Positions 1,389 to 29,233 of a stretch of 29,451 nt of DNA are shown here, one piece after another; within the stretch, counting starts at the first letter, position 1, and each line of letters begins with the position of its first letter. This DNA is from an uncultured Bacilli bacterium (GTDB lineage: Bacteria; Bacillota_I; Bacilli_A; RF39; UBA660). The notes beneath the pieces were generated by a model, which was not told where the DNA came from, did not search any database, and saw only the letters and a program-made list of their open reading frames with translations. Position numbers and translations under genes: made by a program. The DNA lies in assembly GCA_944351345.1 (NCBI GenBank), contig CALVPO010000001.1, forward strand, positions 1-29,451, written 5' to 3'.

Positions 1389-1841
1389 TTATTCTTCTAA
1401 TTCATCATCATCAATAATTGTTAAATCAGCTAACTCATCATCACTATCATCGTCTATAAATGAATCTGTATCTTCTATACTATCTAGATCGTCTTCTTCT
1501 TCAATATTATCACTTATTAAGTCGTTATCTTTATCATTTTCTATATCATCTATGTTATTTTCATCATCTATATCATCTATTACTACTTTTACCTTATGAT
1601 TTTCTCTTAAGTCCCAAGTTCCATCTTCTAATAAGATAAATTCTTTTGATGTTGTTAATGATTGAAAAAAGTCAGCGATTAGATTTACATAATCATTTTC
1701 ATCTAATTCTAATAATGAACATACTTCTTTGAATAAATCAGCCGTATTCATAGTTTTTTTTGTCTCTTCTAAGTACATTTTGGCTATTTCTGTATAAGGT
1801 AATAGCTCTAATTCACTTTTTGGTATTTTATTTAATTTCAT
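1389..1841 (-). CDS. rpoE: RNA polymerase delta subunit
   Basis: N-terminal domain ending F..LEDGTWDLRENH, followed by a long D/E-rich tail; AGGAGG SD; sits downstream of an argS-like gene as in Bacilli. Confidence 0.9.
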   Translation of the reverse strand: MKLNKIPKSELELLPYTEIAKMYLEETKKTMNTADLFKEVCSLLELDENDYVNLIADFFQSLTTSKEFILLEDGTWDLRENHKVKVVIDDIDDENNIDDIENDKDNDLISDNIEEEDDLDSIEDTDSFIDDDSDDELADLTIIDDDELEE

Positions 1842-1850
1842 GATATCCTC

Positions 1851-3326
1851 CTACATTTCCTCTCTTGGTATTATACCAATTAAATCTAAAGAATTATTAA
1901 TTACTATCTTAATTGCTAATATTAAGTTTAATCTTTCATTGCTATATATTTCATTTTTTATTGTTATAAATTCCTTCTCATAGAAAGAATTAAATAATTT
2001 GCTTAATTCATATGCATAAGTTGTAATTAAATAAGGTTCTTCTTTTTCGCTTGCTGTTATTACAATATCTTCAAATTGATATAATTTCTTTAAAATAGTA
2101 TATGTTATTTCACTTTTTATGGTAGTAAATTTGTCTATTCTTTTTATATTTTTTTTATATTTTTCTAAGATATTACAAATTTTTGCGTTTGTTGATTCGA
2201 TATAATATATAGAATTTTTATTAGATTTTTCTAAGTGCTTATTTATATCTATTTCTAATGTTTCAGTAATTTTTTTTGAAGCAAATAGATATCTTGTAGC
2301 ATTTATTCCTATGATATTCATTATTTCAATATGAGATATATCTTTATTGTCGTTGTTAATTAATTTGGCCATTTCTAAGTTTTTTATGTCTAAAATACTG
2401 GATTTTTTTTCTAGAATGGCTAAGGCTGCTTTTAGACTATTATTTGATGATTTTTTTTGTTGTGGTAATACGTCTATTACTTTGATATAGCCTTTATTTA
2501 TTTTTGTTACATTATATGTAATATCAGATATTAGATCAGTATACTCTCCATTATTTGTTATTAATAATCTATCTTTAGAATCACCAAATATTGAGGTTTT
2601 AAGCCATAATGAGTTTTCATCTATATAACAATAATTAGTATACCTTAGCTTTGTTAATACTTCATCTACTAAGCAATTATCATATAAAGATTGTCTAGTA
2701 GTAAATATATTAAAATTTATTCTAAAAATATCTAAATCATTTTTTATATTTGAAATATTGTCTGGTATTAGTTTATTTATTTTATAAAGCTCATATATAT
2801 TATTTTTATCTTGGTAATTATCTTTACTTTTTTCACTATCACAGATATAATATTCTCTTGTTATATCATAACCACAAAAATTCATTATTCTACAAAGATT
2901 ATCCCCATATATGACTTCTCTTAACTTATTTACATCTAATGTATTATCTTGATCAGTTGTTGTAAAATCAATATTAATTTTTTGATTATGACCTGTATTA
3001 TTTCTGCCATAATTATTTTTTTTCTCTAATATATTATTAATATTTGATAGTAAATATTCTTTTTTTAGAGAAAAAGTTATAAAACCTTGATCTATTATTT
3101 CTATTTTTTCTATTAATTTTTCATTTTTTATATTTTTTATAATTAATTTAGCTGTTTCCAATGGGGATTTTTTTAGTTTTTCTGTTAATACTATTGGTAT
3201 ATTAATATAGTAATCTCCGTATTCATTATTGTTTGTTAATTCTATATTTATTTCTTTTATATCTATTTCACATATATCTTTTAAGCTATTTTTTATAGTT
3301 TCTTTTAGAGTATTTTTTATACTCAT
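1851..3326 (-). CDS. Arginyl-tRNA synthetase-like protein with degenerate catalytic motifs
   Basis: Aligns by eye along ArgRS (YGDY, GFITF, YGDNLCRIMNFCGYDITREYY, NATRYLF, EPYLITTYAYELSKLFNSFY, C-terminal IPREEM), but the HIGH, GADHHGY and MSKR motifs are replaced. Confidence 0.85.
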   Translation of the reverse strand: MSIKNTLKETIKNSLKDICEIDIKEINIELTNNNEYGDYYINIPIVLTEKLKKSPLETAKLIIKNIKNEKLIEKIEIIDQGFITFSLKKEYLLSNINNILEKKNNYGRNNTGHNQKINIDFTTTDQDNTLDVNKLREVIYGDNLCRIMNFCGYDITREYYICDSEKSKDNYQDKNNIYELYKINKLIPDNISNIKNDLDIFRINFNIFTTRQSLYDNCLVDEVLTKLRYTNYCYIDENSLWLKTSIFGDSKDRLLITNNGEYTDLISDITYNVTKINKGYIKVIDVLPQQKKSSNNSLKAALAILEKKSSILDIKNLEMAKLINNDNKDISHIEIMNIIGINATRYLFASKKITETLEIDINKHLEKSNKNSIYYIESTNAKICNILEKYKKNIKRIDKFTTIKSEITYTILKKLYQFEDIVITASEKEEPYLITTYAYELSKLFNSFYEKEFITIKNEIYSNERLNLILAIKIVINNSLDLIGIIPREEM

Positions 3327-3328
3327 TA

Positions 3329-3694
3329 TTATTCACTCCTAACTATACAGTACTCATATTTGTTGTTAGAGTCATTTACTAAATAAATTATTCTAATTTC
3401 TTTATCAGTTACTTTTATATATAGTGTAGTTATATCTAGCTCTATAGTGTAATTAAACTCTTTTATATTATAAGTTGAAGAAATAGTTTTATTCTTCTCA
3501 AAATATATGGTATTAATTATTTCTTTATTTTCTCTTATTAAAACTAATTTAGTTGGAGAAATTATTTTTAGTATATATTTTTCGTTATTTTGTATATAAG
3601 TTATTTTATTATTGTTTTTTATAGCTTTTGTAAGGATACTATTAATATTATTTTCAGTAATATTTTTTAGGTAGCCTTTTAATTTTAATTTCGT
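3329..3694 (-). CDS. YwiB/DUF1934-like beta-rich protein with apparent ACG start
   Basis: 121 open codons (xKLKLKGYLKNITE...YEYCIVRSE*), AGGAGG 7 nt before ACG, in-frame TAG just upstream, stop 2 nt before the argS-like ATG. Family assignment rests on position (ywiB-argS in B. subtilis), size and composition. Confidence 0.65.
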   Translation of the reverse strand, partial: TKLKLKGYLKNITENNINSILTKAIKNNNKITYIQNNEKYILKIISPTKLVLIRENKEIINTIYFEKNKTISSTYNIKEFNYTIELDITTLYIKVTDKEIRIIYLVNDSNNKYEYCIVRSE

Positions 3695-5799: not shown

Positions 5800-5824
5800 A
5801 GAAGTAGATTATTTTTCTACTTCT
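5800..5824. terminator. Likely bidirectional terminator between the convergent PBP and Noc-like genes
   Basis: AGAAGTAGA-TTATTTT-TCTACTTCT, a 9-bp stem overlapping the minus-strand stop codon. Confidence 0.6.
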
Positions 5825-7299
5825 ATTGTGATTTTATAATTTTCTTGATTGTCATCTTCTGTTATTTCTATGTTATACCCTAGAGCTTCTATATTTATTG
5901 CTAAATCTTTGATCATATTTACTATAGGGATAACATTTTTATGTTCTGTTTCTTGAGATAATGTTGAATCATCTGGTATATTTTCTGAATCTAAATCATC
6001 AGTTGTTTGATCAGTATCTTGTGAATTTTCGATGTTATTTGTATTTAATTCATTTACTTGAGGCTGGTTATTTATATTTTGAGGTTCTATTGGTGGAATG
6101 CTATAATCTGATATTGTGTTGTTGATTTCGTTATAAGTTGGAGTTAGATTATTTGTATTCATTGATTGTACTGATTCTTGTGGTTGTTGATTAATTAGAT
6201 TTGGTTGAATGTTTTGTGGAGATTGAATGTCTAAACTTTGATTTATAAATTGTCCTTGGGGTGTTTGCTGATTTTGTGATGTGTCTAAATTATTAGGGAT
6301 AGGAGACATTTGGTTTAACTTATAATTTATATCTTGCCCCTGATTAATAGATTGACTTGGCATTTCATTTATTGGAGACTGATTATTAAATGATGTTTGT
6401 ACATTGGGCATATTTATTGAAGAGGTTTGTGAATTAATTGGAGTTTGAATATTTTGGGTTAAATTTATTGGCTCTTCGTGTGAAGTATCGGTTAAATCTA
6501 TAAATGATGCTGGGGTAGGGGCTATATTATTATTAGATGGTTGGCTTGTTATATTGTTTGGAATATTTATATTTCCAATCCCTGTATTTAAATTCATATT
6601 TGTTGGTTCATCTTCTAATGATGGGAAAAATCTTCTTCCAAAGGCTGGTTCTGATTGAGACATATTCTGCTCTAGTGTTGATTGTTGTTGATTATTTGTA
6701 TTTATTTGATTATTGTTTACGAATTGATTATTATTCATATTAAATTCATTCCTTTCTTTTTTATCTAGTTCAGATAAATTAATAATATCATTATTGATAA
6801 AATTTGGCATAGAACTAGTTGAAACATCATTTTGGTTATCGAATAGTTTGGGAGGCTCTTTTTTTCGTTCTTCTTTTACTAAATTTAATTTTGCTTCAAT
6901 TCTATCTAAAGGAATTCCTAGATTTATATTTAATTTTTCTTTAGTTATATTTTGATATTCTATTGCTTTTTCGTATAAATAGCCTTCTTCTTTTCCAGTT
7001 AATTCTTTTCTTTGAACATTATCAGATATTATTAGATTTATTGCTTTTGCATCATCTATATCCAGTATTATAACTGGTATTTTTTCTATTCTTAATATTC
7101 TAGCAGCATTATATCTTCTATTTCCCAGAATTATTTCATATTGAATTCCTTTAGGTCTTACTATTAATGGTATAATTATACCATTATTTTTAATGGAATT
7201 AGTAAGATTTTCTAAACTAGTTTTTGTTTCTTCTATGTGTGGTTGAAACTCTCCTGGGATAAGTTCATTTAAGTTGATATACTTAATAGAATTATCCAT
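5809..7299 (-). CDS. ParB/Noc-family protein with long N/Q/P-rich low-complexity insert
   Basis: ParB N-terminal domain (GIIIPLIVRP, LGNRRYNAA, DNVQRKEL), HTH-like segment, ~300 aa low complexity, and C-terminal VNMIKDLAINIEALGY...YKITIEVEK resembling the Noc C-terminal domain; lies at the noc position downstream of rsmG. Confidence 0.8.
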   Translation of the reverse strand: MDNSIKYINLNELIPGEFQPHIEETKTSLENLTNSIKNNGIIIPLIVRPKGIQYEIILGNRRYNAARILRIEKIPVIILDIDDAKAINLIISDNVQRKELTGKEEGYLYEKAIEYQNITKEKLNINLGIPLDRIEAKLNLVKEERKKEPPKLFDNQNDVSTSSMPNFINNDIINLSELDKKERNEFNMNNNQFVNNNQINTNNQQQSTLEQNMSQSEPAFGRRFFPSLEDEPTNMNLNTGIGNINIPNNITSQPSNNNIAPTPASFIDLTDTSHEEPINLTQNIQTPINSQTSSINMPNVQTSFNNQSPINEMPSQSINQGQDINYKLNQMSPIPNNLDTSQNQQTPQGQFINQSLDIQSPQNIQPNLINQQPQESVQSMNTNNLTPTYNEINNTISDYSIPPIEPQNINNQPQVNELNTNNIENSQDTDQTTDDLDSENIPDDSTLSQETEHKNVIPIVNMIKDLAINIEALGYNIEITEDDNQENYKITIEVEK

Positions 7300-7395: not shown

Positions 7396-7541
7396 CTTAA
7401 CTTGCAAAAGTAAATTCCACTCTCTTTTTTATTAACATAGAATTTATTTATACAAATAAAAAAGTGGAATTTAATTCTACAATAGTTTATAATATATAAA
7501 TTGATGATGCTTATTCTTATTTTGAAAAGGAGTTGAGTATT

Positions 7542-8765
7542 ATGAAGAATAAACATTTATCATTTGGCGGAAGATTAGAAATAGAAAGAGGTTTAAAGGA
7601 AAATTTATCCTTTAAACAAATTGCGAAAAATATCGAAAAAGATTGCACTACAGTTTCAAAAGAAATCAGAAACCATATAACTTTTAAAAATTCTGGGGCT
7701 ATTGGTAGACCTTTCTTAGACTGTATTAACAGACATAATTGTGAATTTAAAACTAAGGGTACTAAATGTAATCCTAAAATATGTGAACATTATCAAAAAG
7801 AAATTTGTAAGAATTTATCTAAACCACCATACGTTTGTAATGGTTGTCCAAAAAAAAGCACTTGTACATTAAGTAAACAGATTTATGATTCTACTTATGC
7901 ATTTAAAGAATATAAAGATAATTTAACAGAAGCTAGAACTGGTATTGCATATTCTGAAAAAGAAATTGAAAATTTAAATAACATTTTAATACCTCTTGTA
8001 AAAGAACAAAAACAATCAATACATCACGCAGTTATTAACAAAAAAAATAAAATCATGTGTTCTGAAAAAGAAATTTATAATTTAATTGATTTAGGAGTTC
8101 TAAAAGTCAGAAATATTGATTTAACAAGAAAAGTCAGATATAAAATTACTCCTAAAAATAAAAGTAGTTATAAAATTGATAAAGATTGCTTAAATGGTAG
8201 AAAATATGAGGACTATATTAATTTTATAAAGGAAAATCCAGATATAAATGTAGTAGAAATGGATACTGTAGAAGGTATCAAAGGTGGTAAAGTTTTACTA
8301 ACAATTCATTTTGTAAATTGTTCATTTATGTTTGCTTTTTTAAGAGAACATAATGATGCACAATCTGTAATTGATATTTTTAATTCAATTGAAAATAAAG
8401 TAAAAATAAATACATTTAAAAGATTGTTTCCAGTAATTTTAACTGATAATGGACCTGAATTTTCTAACCCAAAAGAAATAGAATTTAGAAGGAAAAGTGA
8501 TAAACAAAGAACGAAAATCTTTTATTGTGAGCCTGGAAGGCCAGATCAAAAAGGTTCTTGTGAAGTTAATCATGAAATGATTAGAAGAATATTACCTAAA
8601 GGAACATCTTTTGATAATTTAACTCAAGATGATATTAATAAAATGATGTCACATATAAATTCATACAAAAGAAAAAAACTAAATAATTGTTCACCACTAC
8701 AATTATTTAGTGTTATGTATGGCCAAAATATAGCCAAACAATTTGGAATTATTGAAATTAATTAA
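7542..8765 (+). CDS. IS30-family transposase
   Basis: N-terminal HTH (SFKQIAKNIEKDCTTVSKEIRN), DDE triad EMDTVEG / TDNGPEF / QKGSCEVNHEMIRR. ATG 7542 is preferred over the track's TTG 7533 on AGGAG spacing. Confidence 0.92.
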   Translation: MKNKHLSFGGRLEIERGLKENLSFKQIAKNIEKDCTTVSKEIRNHITFKNSGAIGRPFLDCINRHNCEFKTKGTKCNPKICEHYQKEICKNLSKPPYVCNGCPKKSTCTLSKQIYDSTYAFKEYKDNLTEARTGIAYSEKEIENLNNILIPLVKEQKQSIHHAVINKKNKIMCSEKEIYNLIDLGVLKVRNIDLTRKVRYKITPKNKSSYKIDKDCLNGRKYEDYINFIKENPDINVVEMDTVEGIKGGKVLLTIHFVNCSFMFAFLREHNDAQSVIDIFNSIENKVKINTFKRLFPVILTDNGPEFSNPKEIEFRRKSDKQRTKIFYCEPGRPDQKGSCEVNHEMIRRILPKGTSFDNLTQDDINKMMSHINSYKRKKLNNCSPLQLFSVMYGQNIAKQFGIIEIN

Positions 8766-16395: not shown

Positions 16396-18150
16396 ATGTT
16401 TAAAGAGATAACTGCTATTAGTAAAAATTTTGCTATGGTTAGATTAGAAGGGAGTGCTAATGATGATTTATTGAACATGAATGTTATTTTTGAAGATGGT
16501 AGTAAAAAAATTTTAGGTGAAGTTGATGAAATAGATAATAATCAACTTAAAATTAGTTTTTTAGGAGAATTTGTTAATGATAAGTTTTTGGGAGGTATAA
16601 TTAGAAAACCTAGTTTAACATCTAAGATAAGAATGATTAACCAACAAGAATTAGGAGAACTAGTTGGTGAAAATAATGATAAAAGTATGGTTTTAGGCCT
16701 TTCTCCTTTGTATAATGATTATCCTATTAAAATTGATATCGATGATATGTGGAGTAATCACAGTGCTATTTTTGGAAATACTGGTAGTGGTAAAACATAT
16801 GGAGTAGCTAGATATGTTCAAAATTTATTTAATATGCCAGATAAAATTCCTTTTAATAGTAATATTTTTATATTTAACAATACTGATGAATATGATAATG
16901 CATTTAAAACCATTAATACCTATAATGTTAATTTTAATTATAAAATGTTTTCTATTAATGGTAACGAAAACAATTGTATAAAGTTACCTTTATGGCTGTT
17001 ATCTGTTGATGATTATGCTAATATTTTAGATGTTACTGAATATTCACAGTTATCGGTTATTGAAAAAATGCTTAGTTTAGTTTCTGCTTTTGCTAGGAAT
17101 GATGCTGAATCTAAAAGATATAAAAATCATTTGATAGCAAGTGCCATTACTTCTGTTTTATACACTAATCAAACACCTGGTAGAATTAGAGATCAGATAT
17201 TTTCTATATTAGAAAACTGTTATACTGATGAATTGAATTTAGATGTTGAAGTACCTGGAATTGGTTATACTAGACAGTTTAGAAAATGTTTTGAGATAGA
17301 TAGTAAAGGTGAATTTGCAGAAAGGGTATTAATTGCTGAATATATTCAAAAATTCGTTGATAATAGTACCAAATGGAATGAAGATTTTGTTCCTATATAT
17401 TTTACTCTAGATGATTTAGAAGTAGCTCTTAATTTTGCTCTAATTTCTGAAGGATTACTTTTAAATGAAAAATCATATAGCGAGGCTATGGCATTAAAAG
17501 TAAAACTTCACACTATCAATAATAGCAGTTATAAAAAGTTATTTAATTATGGTAAATTTGTTAATATTTCAGAGTTTATAACTGATTTGATTATGATTGG
17601 TCAAACAAAAAGAGCACAAATTATAAATTTTGTTTTAGAGGACATAGATGATAGATTTGCTAAGGCATTAGTTAAAGTTTATTGTAGAATTATTTTTAAA
17701 TTTAGTAAAGGACTTAAAGATAGAGGAGCTATGCCTATTCATTTAATGTTAGAAGAAGCTCATAGATATGTACAAAGAGATAATGATATTAATATATTAG
17801 GATATAATATGTTTGAAAGAATTGCTAAAGAAGGCAGAAAATTTGGCGTTGTTTTAGATTTGATTACTCAAAGACCAACTGAATTATCAGAAGCTGTTAT
17901 CTCACAATGTAGTAATTTCTTAATTTTTAAAATTACACATCCTACTGATTTAGAATATATTAGAAAAATGGTTCCTAATATTAGTGCAGATGTAATTGAA
18001 AAACAAAAATCTTTGCAAGCTGGAACATGCGTTGCTTTTGGAAAAATGATGAAAATTCCTATGATTGTAAAAATGCAACTACCTAATCCTGAACCAAGGA
18101 GTTCAAATGCATCAATTTACAACAAGTGGATGATTGAGTGGAAAAGTTAG
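16396..18150 (+). CDS. HerA/FtsK-superfamily ATPase (HAS barrel + DUF87-type domain)
   Basis: Walker A GNTGSGKT, Walker B LMLEEAH, ERIAKEGRKFG and TQRP motifs; AAGGAGG SD; extended -10 TGATAAAAT at 16361-16369. Confidence 0.88.
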   Translation: MFKEITAISKNFAMVRLEGSANDDLLNMNVIFEDGSKKILGEVDEIDNNQLKISFLGEFVNDKFLGGIIRKPSLTSKIRMINQQELGELVGENNDKSMVLGLSPLYNDYPIKIDIDDMWSNHSAIFGNTGSGKTYGVARYVQNLFNMPDKIPFNSNIFIFNNTDEYDNAFKTINTYNVNFNYKMFSINGNENNCIKLPLWLLSVDDYANILDVTEYSQLSVIEKMLSLVSAFARNDAESKRYKNHLIASAITSVLYTNQTPGRIRDQIFSILENCYTDELNLDVEVPGIGYTRQFRKCFEIDSKGEFAERVLIAEYIQKFVDNSTKWNEDFVPIYFTLDDLEVALNFALISEGLLLNEKSYSEAMALKVKLHTINNSSYKKLFNYGKFVNISEFITDLIMIGQTKRAQIINFVLEDIDDRFAKALVKVYCRIIFKFSKGLKDRGAMPIHLMLEEAHRYVQRDNDINILGYNMFERIAKEGRKFGVVLDLITQRPTELSEAVISQCSNFLIFKITHPTDLEYIRKMVPNISADVIEKQKSLQAGTCVAFGKMMKIPMIVKMQLPNPEPRSSNASIYNKWMIEWKS

Positions 18151-27428: not shown

Positions 27429-27444
27429 TGTTCCACGTGAAACA
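27429..27444. promoter_or_regulatory. parS site 1
   Basis: TGTTCCACGTGAAACA matches the Bacillus parS consensus; ATTTCCACA follows at 27448. Confidence 0.9.
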
Positions 27445-27565
27445 TAGATTTCCACAATTTCTTTTTTTATTTAACAAAAGGGTGGTTAGTATTTGTTTAT
27501 AAAATATTATGCAATTGATGCTTGTTAATGTAATTTTGTTAAATTATTTTTATGTATTCTTTATA

Positions 27566-27581
27566 TGTTTCACGTGGAACA
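27566..27581. promoter_or_regulatory. parS site 2
   Basis: TGTTTCACGTGGAACA; TTTTCCACA follows at 27584. Confidence 0.9.
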
Positions 27582-27892
27582 TGTTTTCCACATCTATTAA
27601 TTTATAACTATATTATTTATAAAGGTTATTTTGAAATTTTTATTATTTCGTTAATTAAGAATGAAAGATATTTATAATCTGTTGAAATTAAAATTTGTAG
27701 TTTAATAAAGAAAAATTTAACTATTCTTATAATTCTATTAAATTTATATTGTTTTATTAATAATCAGTTTAATAGAATTTCTAATACTATAATTTTATTT
27801 TTTATTGTTAATAAAAGTTATTTATTAATATATTTGTTTGATAATGTTTGATGTGAAAATTATAATATATTTATTTTATAAGATTATTTTTA

Positions 27893-27908
27893 TGTTTCAC
27901 GTGAAACA
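27893..27908. promoter_or_regulatory. parS site 3
   Basis: Perfect palindrome TGTTTCACGTGAAACA; ATTTCCACA follows at 27912. Confidence 0.92.
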
Positions 27909-27924
27909 TAGATTTCCACAGGTT

Positions 27925-28270
27925 GTTTAAATTACAAAATAATGCTAATAAAATATTTAATGGAAAAATTGCATATAGATTTAGATAATTAATTGGACAT
28001 GGTTGTTAAGCAAGAAATATTCAAATAATAAAAGAAAGCATTTCAAGAGAGTATGTTCATATGTGGTCTTATGCCCTCTAAATATTTCTGTAGCACAAAT
28101 GAATGATGCAATATTTGAAAGGAAGAAGTTCTAAAAAATTAGAAGGAGAGTTTCTACTATTAAAGAAAAAAGTTTGTGGACAATATATATGGGCTGTTGA
28201 ATTTTTTTGTAGAACTGTTGGACAATTACTGATGAAATTATAAAATTATATATAGAAAAACAAACTGATA
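27925..28270 (+). pseudogene. Decayed IS200/IS605-family TnpA (Y1 HUH transposase)
   Basis: Pieces in shifting frames: GKIAYRFR*LIGHGC*ARNIQIIKESISREYVHM, then MQYLKGRSSKKLEGEF...GQYIWAVEFFCRTVG, then TDEIIKLYIEKQ. These match the HUH, LKGRSS, W..GYF..TVG and YIxxQ motifs of TnpA. Confidence 0.8.
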
Positions 28271-28430
28271 ATAAAAAAGAAGTTTTAGATATGGATTTTT
28301 GGATTTTAAACAACTCTTGTGTTTTTAGTGCATGGTGATTGATAATAATTAATTATTTATCTATAGTTGAAATAATTTATAGTTATATATGATATGTAGC
28401 TATCACGGTTAATTTATAAAAAAAATTTTA

Positions 28431-28446
28431 TGTTCCACGTGAAACA
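28431..28446. promoter_or_regulatory. parS site 4
   Basis: TGTTCCACGTGAAACA; TTTTCCACA follows at 28451. Confidence 0.9.
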
Positions 28447-28881
28447 TAAGTTTTCCACAGTTAAATATTTTTGCTTTTTTTGGAAAAAATATGTATGTAT
28501 ATTTATTTATATATTTATAATATTAATAATGTTTTAAAATAGGTGATATGTATAAAAAATATAAACTAGTAGAATATAGTTAGAATACTATACTTTTTTA
28601 CAAGTTTTATTATTTAAAATGTTCTTAAAATTTGTTAATATTTTTATATTTTACTTTGATAATAATGTTGAAGAAAAAATTTAATTATTATTTCATTAAA
28701 AGATTAATAGAAGAATAGAAGATGTTTATAAATTTTTTTGATAATGGGTTTGTAGAGTGTAGTGTTAGTATGAATTTTTTTTATTGAATAGTTAAAAGTT
28801 ATGTTATTAATTAATATTTTGAGAACTATTTTATTGTAGATAATTTATTTTTGTATAACTATTTATTTATAATAAAATTTA

Positions 28882-28897
28882 TGTTTCACGTGAAACA
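28882..28897. promoter_or_regulatory. parS site 5
   Basis: Perfect palindrome TGTTTCACGTGAAACA; TTTTCCACA follows at 28901. Confidence 0.92.
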
Positions 28898-28998
28898 TTG
28901 TTTTCCACATATAGTAAAATAGTTATTTTTTTTATTACTATGTGTAATTTATTTTTATAAATTTAATAATAATTTGGTTTTGGTTTTTAATATTTATA

Positions 28999-29014
28999 TG
29001 TTTCACGTGGAACA
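28999..29014. promoter_or_regulatory. parS site 6
   Basis: TGTTTCACGTGGAACA; no abutting box, but a reverse box TGTGGAAAA lies at 29040. Confidence 0.9.
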
Positions 29015-29087: not shown

Positions 29088-29093
29088 CTTATT

Positions 29094-29167
29094 GATGCAA
29101 CAGTATTATTTTGGAACCAAGTCAGAATCGGAAGATAGCAGCTTTAACAATTTATACTGTGTGCATC
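29094..29167 (+). ncRNA. ffs: Signal recognition particle RNA, small (4.5S-type)
   Basis: Core GAACC-AAG-TCAGA-ATC-GGAA-GAT-AGCAGC; ends pair (GATGCA/TGCATC, ACAGTAT/ATACTGT); followed by a T tract; directly upstream of dnaX, like scr in Bacillus. Confidence 0.88.
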
Positions 29168-29233
29168 TTTTTTTATTTTTGTTTATTATTTTTTTACAAA
29201 CAAACGTTCTTTCTTGATTTTTTTTGATTTATG

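Follow-up and report, generated by a model that had tools for sequence, protein, structure and literature searches.

Inactive homologs of aminoacyl-tRNA synthetases are already known, and some synthetase-derived proteins have been kept for roles outside normal tRNA charging. HisZ and YadB/GluQ-RS are of this kind; both originated as distinct paralogs whose roles are known, YadB being a catalytic one (PMC7373986). DALRD3 of vertebrates binds specific tRNA-Arg for METTL2 (PMC7237682), and NrtL (NF045898) is an ArgS-related, anticodon-binding bacterial protein of ~330 aa. For the active enzyme, studies of E. coli ArgRS have established that D118 and D317 are essential for binding arginine, with R324 also described (PMC3956977), and that N84 is the central residue recognising A20 (PMC8975779).

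The locus analysed here lies in a 29,451-nucleotide stretch of DNA (the window) from a 1.4-Mb Bacilli assembly with 26% GC and 89.6% completeness (G000). It encodes a protein that resembles ArgRS of the Bacilli/Campylobacter type (TIGR00456) in descent, domain order, fold (TM ~0.8) and locus, and that is 52–58% identical to its nearest intact orthologs. However, this ‘dead’ ArgRS lacks the HIGH, GADH and KMSKS-type motifs, the equivalents of Y313 and Q341 and most of insertion 1, and unlike ordinary ArgRS it is always accompanied by a second, intact argS. It shares with DALRD3 an origin from ArgRS and a DALR domain kept without catalytic motifs, but DALRD3 has an unrelated N-terminal part, whereas the dead ArgRS keeps the Rossmann scaffold and has lost residues for tRNA-Arg identity; membership of the DALRD3 family was rejected because the N-terminal part is a Rossmann fold. 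NrtL membership also failed, with a weak match over residues 25–156 that scored 45.3 bits against a cut-off of 340, and short dead forms, unlike NrtL, lack the N-terminal region responsible for this match. In contrast to HisZ and YadB, the dead ArgRS is a native ortholog that has died in place, repeatedly, beside an enzyme of a different subfamily. No paper was found that describes this family or a bacterial ArgRS that is dead yet nearly full-length, and these proteins form a real, recurrent and apparently undescribed pseudo-synthetase family. By analogy with HisZ or DALRD3, the dead ArgRS putatively functions as a synthetase homolog without activity.

Coordinates of the gene and of other features of the window are collected in Table 1. 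The sequence-only reading of this DNA had reported an uninterrupted ORF of 491 aa in the order ywiB-argS-rpoE, and both points are borne out, the latter by a family match for rpoE and by a ywiB-like ORF. Gaps of 2 and 9 nt separate the dead argS from the ywiB-like ORF and rpoE, respectively, and the Shine-Dalgarno (SD) site of rpoE itself (1847–1852) overlaps the argS stop codon. DUF1934, at 17% of the nearest Atlas cluster, is a lead only for the ywiB-like ORF. Promoter and terminator scans at the locus gave chance-level results only, no Rfam leader was found upstream, and the junction RNAs fold no better than shuffles. A complex prediction for the dead ArgRS and YwiB (score 0.00) returned no answer and counts neither way. 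The protein is present on 20 contigs, and chicken-gut contigs from independent studies match with 0–1 differences, so that an assembly artefact is rejected. The one named member of the family bears the usual arginine-tRNA ligase annotation in NCBI.

Table 1. Positions of the dead argS, its altered segments and other features of the window.
Feature	Positions	Strand	Basis or remark
Dead ArgRS of 491 aa, the native argS of type A	1851..3326	-	Pfam/family models, alignment, structure model
N-terminal Add1 domain with its fold retained in this copy; 12/40 relatives lack it	3066..3311	-	Pfam, alignment
Degenerate A20-recognition strand (PGFIN altered)	3075..3092	-	residues 79-84; N84 equivalent is T, F82 kept
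Degenerate HIGH segment without its two histidines and its glycine	2925..2963	-	alignment, residues 122-134
Insertion 1 remnant	2757..2834	-	~40 aa deleted; disordered in model, pLDDT < 50
Degenerate GADH motif, E. coli Q341 position	2445..2465	-	residues 288-294
Strand preceding the deleted KMSKS-equivalent loop	2361..2372	-	residues 319-322
DALR/Add2 helical bundle, among best-retained regions across dead relatives	1854..2192	-	Pfam, retention analysis
rpoE (RNA polymerase delta)	1389..1841	-	TIGR04567, weak match yet over cut-off
ywiB-like ORF, 121 aa, upstream gene of operon, conserved ACG start	3329..3694	-	locus comparison
Shine-Dalgarno-like site of dead argS, within the end of ywiB	3334..3340	-	sequence
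ParB-like gene: ParB N-terminal domain, then long Asn/Gln/Pro-rich low-complexity region	5809-7299	-	
410-aa ORF with HTH_38 domain, between gidB and ParB-like gene	7533-8765	+	
HerA-like ATPase between rnpA and dnaA, near origin region	16396-18150	+	
Bacterial small SRP RNA	29089-29175	+	Rfam RF00169

Alignment with the intact orthologs shows ~50 residues to be absent in total, and every lesion noticed from the letters was seen again in this comparison: HIGH, GADH and PGFIN are altered, the KMSKS-type loop is gone and insertion 1 is shortened. The DAGNQ motif is likewise replaced or deleted. Mapping on E. coli ArgRS indicates that, of the arginine-binding set (D118, N123, Y313, D317, Q341), only D118 and D317 still have equivalents (D120 and D268), those of N123, Y313 and Q341 being gone; HIGH with its preceding SxNP residues is missing, the KMSKS-equivalent loop is deleted and the A20-recognising Asn is T84. 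The earlier statement that every catalytic motif has been lost is a slight overstatement, because the equivalents of D118, D317 and R324 survive as D120, D268 and K275. Similarly, the tRNA-binding scaffolds remain, as had been claimed, in the form of folds, but key identity residues in them are changed (N84 to T and Y378 to S). These comparisons, combined with the selection analysis below, show that the native argS no longer has the residues that serve ATP binding, arginyl-adenylate formation and tRNA-Arg identity, while the protein is still under purifying selection.

Pfam models place Arg_tRNA_synt_N at residues 6–87 and DALR_1 at residues 379–491, and the catalytic model is matched only over a short piece. 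The predicted structure (pLDDT 84, pTM 0.85) is confident except in the insertion 1 remnant and matches solved ArgRS structures (PDB 3fnr, 2zue) at a TM of ~0.8; as intact homologs were included in the model's alignment, it shows fold compatibility and not independent proof. Pfam and the model agree on the ArgRS architecture of Add1, Rossmann and DALR parts, so that a synthetase fold is combined with the loss of catalytic residues, as in a pseudoenzyme.

A second argS was found on contig C102, between hisS, which lies directly upstream, and a sigG-like gene. It carries intact HIGH-type and KFKTR-type motifs and belongs to another subfamily (type B), 20% identical to type A. The expectation of the sequence-only reading that a working argS resides elsewhere in the genome is therefore supported, and its refuting case, that the dead gene is the only argS, does not apply. 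Its word ‘paralog’ does not fit: since the second argS is of another subfamily and the dead gene occupies the ywiB-argS-rpoE position, the dead gene did not arise by duplication of the working argS but is the native ortholog, made redundant by type B. The hisS-argS adjacency is common to five other species and the same place is without argS in type-A-only species, which makes mis-binning unlikely. An intact second argS is present in 11 of 11 genomes having a dead copy, although these genomes are related and not independent; each thus holds a predicted active counterpart, as is typical of pseudoenzymes. A redundant second hisS, which could have served as a co-acquired internal control, is absent, hisS being single-copy in 18 of 18 genomes. 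The type-B argS was either acquired by transfer or is ancestral and was lost elsewhere. In many genera of the bacterial family, type B lies directly upstream of rpoE at the argS position (loci L221, L222, L224, L227, L229, L232 and L233, in G018, G019, G023, G027, G030, G035 and G036, respectively), which shows mutual replacement of the two subfamilies in place. One genome (G007) has a third ArgRS-like gene of another type (L046:3115-4800) besides its dead copy and type B.

Among the 18 species of the genus, 9 have an intact type A only, 2 have intact A and B, and 7 have dead A and B, a combination also present in four more genomes from three other genera. Genome searches and a profile search gave 40 dead sequences in all, of about 300–536 aa, which span dozens of 50%-identity clusters, and 10 of 10 metagenomic members with contigs examined sit directly upstream of an rpoE-sized gene. 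Dead ArgRSs fall beside different intact relatives in trees, where grouping in a single clade is rejected (AU p=9e-11), and a neighbour-gene tree spreads the dead copies over about five genus-level lineages. Within the window's genus, the dead copies, which may or may not share a single origin, group in argS trees with long branches, and the species tree is unresolved there. As judged from these trees, ArgRS death in place arose several times independently.

Most of the bacterial family is without type A altogether. Among 30 type-A-less genomes, the locus is taken by another type of argS in 15, ywiB is immediately followed by rpoE in at least 8, and a short dead copy is present in 2. The gene has been cleanly deleted from G274 and G392, two species that are sisters of dead-copy carriers, which implies that its job is non-essential, and rpoE follows ywiB after gaps of 75–237 nt in other genomes without argS there. 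The relatives form a graded series from intact through dead full-length and Add1-less forms to deletion. The G008 copy (L040:3952-4849), also without Add1, is the sole dead copy with an in-frame TAA, which reflects either end-stage decay or an assembly error. Two ArgRS-like proteins of unrelated lineages (P0227 and P0243) are also without HIGH, GADH and KMSKS-type motifs and are possibly independent pseudo-ArgRSs. ESM Atlas clusters of ArgRS-catalytic-like proteins of 392–430 aa are 96–97% viral, mostly Uroviricota.

Selection on the dead gene was estimated with codon models of our own implementation, and pairwise GY estimates against intact genes, which are saturated, were left out. Two orthologs (P0003 and P0004) carry the lesions of the window protein, so their divergence postdates the loss; against these, dN/dS is 0.10–0.29, with a pairwise estimate of 0.10–0.25. 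The three-way tree of G000, P0003 and P0004 gives 0.20–0.24 (branches 0.29, 0.16 and 0.15), with a likelihood ratio test (LRT) against dN/dS = 1 of 119–150, and the neighbouring genes rpoE, pbp and DUF2229 give 0.05–0.08. Constraint is significant separately in Add1, the Rossmann halves and DALR. The SC region, at 0.46, shows weak constraint, as does what is left of the insertion. Three further dead pairs yield dN/dS values of 0.14, 0.17 and 0.20 at dS 1.3–1.5, where dS above 1 is imprecise; the first two pairs are more degraded and the third is an Add1-less pair of the second clade. These values resemble those of ywiB (0.11–0.28) and the ParB-like gene (0.18) and exceed those of intact argS (0.04–0.05). 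Neutral simulation predicts ~21 stops on a branch of 0.22, and 10 of the 11 genomic dead copies have no in-frame stop, G008 being the exception; protein searches find open frames only, and genome searches read through stops. The check proposed with the sequence-only reading thus gives purifying selection on the protein without frameshifts, and the decaying pseudogene named as its refutation is not what was found.

Intact type A has 174 invariant columns, and the degree to which these are retained is correlated between the independent clades 1 and 2 of the dead relatives (rho 0.86). Neither clade retains insertion 1 or the ATP, arginine and KMSKS residues, and in both most contacts for tRNA identity have gone too; both keep the pre-Rossmann linker (Y106, G107, G112, K116), Y140/D142, K195/D199/R202, G260/Y262, N342/R345, E377, K414 and the C-terminal G484/I486. 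Only the Rossmann-back and DALR core is kept across the dead relatives. The invariant set of G107, D142, R202, G260, N342, R345 and G484 is also invariant in active enzymes and is presumably structural, as in class Ia folds. We take D142, R146, N342 and R345 to form the structural junction from the post-HIGH helix to the SC-fold helix seen in class Ia structures, and much of the kept set may therefore reflect the fold only. No clear new conserved surface patch or motif was found across the dead relatives, which show minor gains only (e.g. Y280). Among 36 sequences of clades 1 and 2, the N84 equivalent is kept in only 11 and Y378 in none; the terminal Met is kept in 8, D268 in only 14 and an acid at position 120 in 20. 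Because the tRNA-Arg identity contacts (A20, anticodon) are not conserved and Add1 is dispensable, specific tRNA-Arg binding is unlikely.

That this ArgRS is conserved yet dead, repeatedly in related bacteria, suggests a second role beyond charging. We lean towards the reading that the dead ArgRS serves a putative non-essential, non-catalytic remnant role. The type-B enzyme would do all tRNA-Arg charging, and the dead protein would be made from the ywiB-argS-rpoE operon, fold like ArgRS and be inactive. Formerly, the Rossmann-fold back, the SC-fold helix and the DALR bundle of type-A ArgRS in this Bacilli group would have done a second job that was not catalytic, this core most likely being a surface that binds either a protein partner or RNA irrespective of its sequence. 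After the second enzyme took over charging, parts needed only for charging would have decayed and the core would have been kept for a job that is useful but, given the deletions in sister species, not essential. Retention for a non-catalytic role had also been proposed in the sequence-only reading; the second argS and purifying selection agree with it, but tRNA binding, one of the roles it named, is argued against by the relatives where specific for tRNA-Arg. Scaffolding or another non-catalytic role stays putative, a partner not having been found.

Bacterial genes that have no function are usually lost fast (PMC2916853), and we prefer the remnant role for this reason and because the core is never deleted though Add1 is, rpoE has its own SD, and Rho was not found in the 5 genomes searched. 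The last two points also weaken an explanation by polarity only. Set against the remnant role are lengths that form an erosion series (536 to about 300 aa), clean deletion in G274, G392 and at least 8 other genomes, the in-frame stop in G008 and the gene's drift to 20% GC against 26% for the genome. The invariant residues, moreover, are the same structural-looking ones as in active enzymes, without a new surface patch. The erosion series and the look of these residues fit the main rival, which we consider rather unlikely: a jobless protein in slow erosion, where selection only removes stops and misfolding substitutions until clean deletion, the constraint coming from translation within the operon (mRNA stability, rpoE expression). 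Retained residues that look like fold determinants, lengths that grade down to complete loss of the gene in sister species and an argS stop overlapped by the rpoE SD are all as this passenger would have them, and disrupted genes can give costly or toxic products (PMC2916853). However, the gene has repeatedly outlasted divergence with dS above 1 and persists in dozens of 50%-identity clusters, Rho was not found in the genomes searched, rpoE sits 75–237 nt after ywiB elsewhere, the junction RNA has ordinary structure, and losing the core in frame should cost no more than losing Add1, but the core is never missing.

Other readings fare less well. A tRNA-Arg-specific adaptor that binds through Add1 and DALR, and presents the tRNA to a modifying enzyme or regulates its use, has a precedent in DALRD3 (PMC7237682); the DALR bundle ranks with the regions retained best, the window copy still has F82, Y449 and the terminal Met, and 3 of the 3 tRNA-Arg genes found carry A20. 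We nevertheless judge it improbable from the losses at N84, Y378 and the terminal Met among relatives, the absence of Add1 in 12 of 40 and a net charge that is neutral to strongly negative. An arginine sensor, whose pocket still binds free arginine without activating it, could draw on D120, D268 and K275 here, but with the Y313, Q341 and N123 equivalents lost, and D268 and the acid at 120 inconstant among relatives, it is very improbable. That the dead copy is a still active, divergent ArgRS seems extremely unlikely from its residues: it just reaches the TIGR00456 cut-off (262 vs 261.65), and canonical HIGH is missing from some natural ArgRSs and KMSK from others (PMC3956977 for KMSK), but these natural variants retain SxNPTG, GADH and KMSKS-type motifs, which here are all gone together, with replacements that differ between dead clades. 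The least credible reading by far is a recent pseudogene in neutral decay, which the selection tests refute for the window's clade; a dN/dS three- to four-fold above that of neighbouring genes and intact argS and the stop in G008 point that way, but dN/dS is far below 1 (LRT 54–150) and the open frame outlasts a divergence that should give dozens of stops.

Returning to the remnant role, it is conceivable, although we hold this only tentatively, that the type-A ArgRS of these gut Bacilli has a moonlighting role so far undescribed, perhaps by scaffolding a factor of transcription or translation, and that the conserved core of the repeated pseudo-synthetases maps the surface involved. The same moonlighting surface could be present in ArgRS of Bacillus-type bacteria. 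Here the same outcome has been reached several times, and the graded series amounts to a natural deletion experiment. It yields either a map of a second function hidden in a housekeeping enzyme or a case of constraint without function. In the second outcome, folding and operon constraints alone would hold a functionless protein at dN/dS near 0.2 in the long term, which would bear on the reading of dN/dS as evidence of function.

The ywiB-like ORF has no ATG, GTG or TTG start. An ACG (3692–3694 in the window) lies 6–7 nt past a strong SD in 17 ywiB loci of the genus and close relatives, with ATG in at least 2 loci and ATA or ATT in other genera. A conserved start of non-canonical type, which may serve translational control, is the likely reading of this ACG. 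Purifying selection acts on the ORF (dN/dS 0.11–0.28), and gene callers miss or truncate it. Dependence of ywiB on argS was rejected, as ywiB remains next to rpoE where argS is deleted.

A link to AGG-to-Met reassignment of an arginine codon (PMC8629427) was considered and no sign of it was seen, since all three tRNA-Arg genes carry A20 and AGG is minor (51 per 10,000 vs 213 for ATG). CGG is very rare in G000 (1.1 per 10,000 codons), and tRNA-Arg(CCG) was not found among the 25 tRNAs of this incomplete assembly; CGG reassignments occur in related Bacilli (PMC8629427).

Elsewhere in the window, the ParB-like gene keeps its position across the genus (dN/dS 0.18), and the best matches of the HerA-like ATPase are anti-phage HerA models, below cut-off. 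The 410-aa HTH_38 ORF, which we take to be an IS30-like transposase, is missing at the corresponding place in L077 and L080. Six perfect parS-type palindromes at 27429–29014 are the sole ones in the assembly; five of the six are followed 4–6 nt on by TTCCACA, a DnaA-box-like heptamer, and shuffles gave none.
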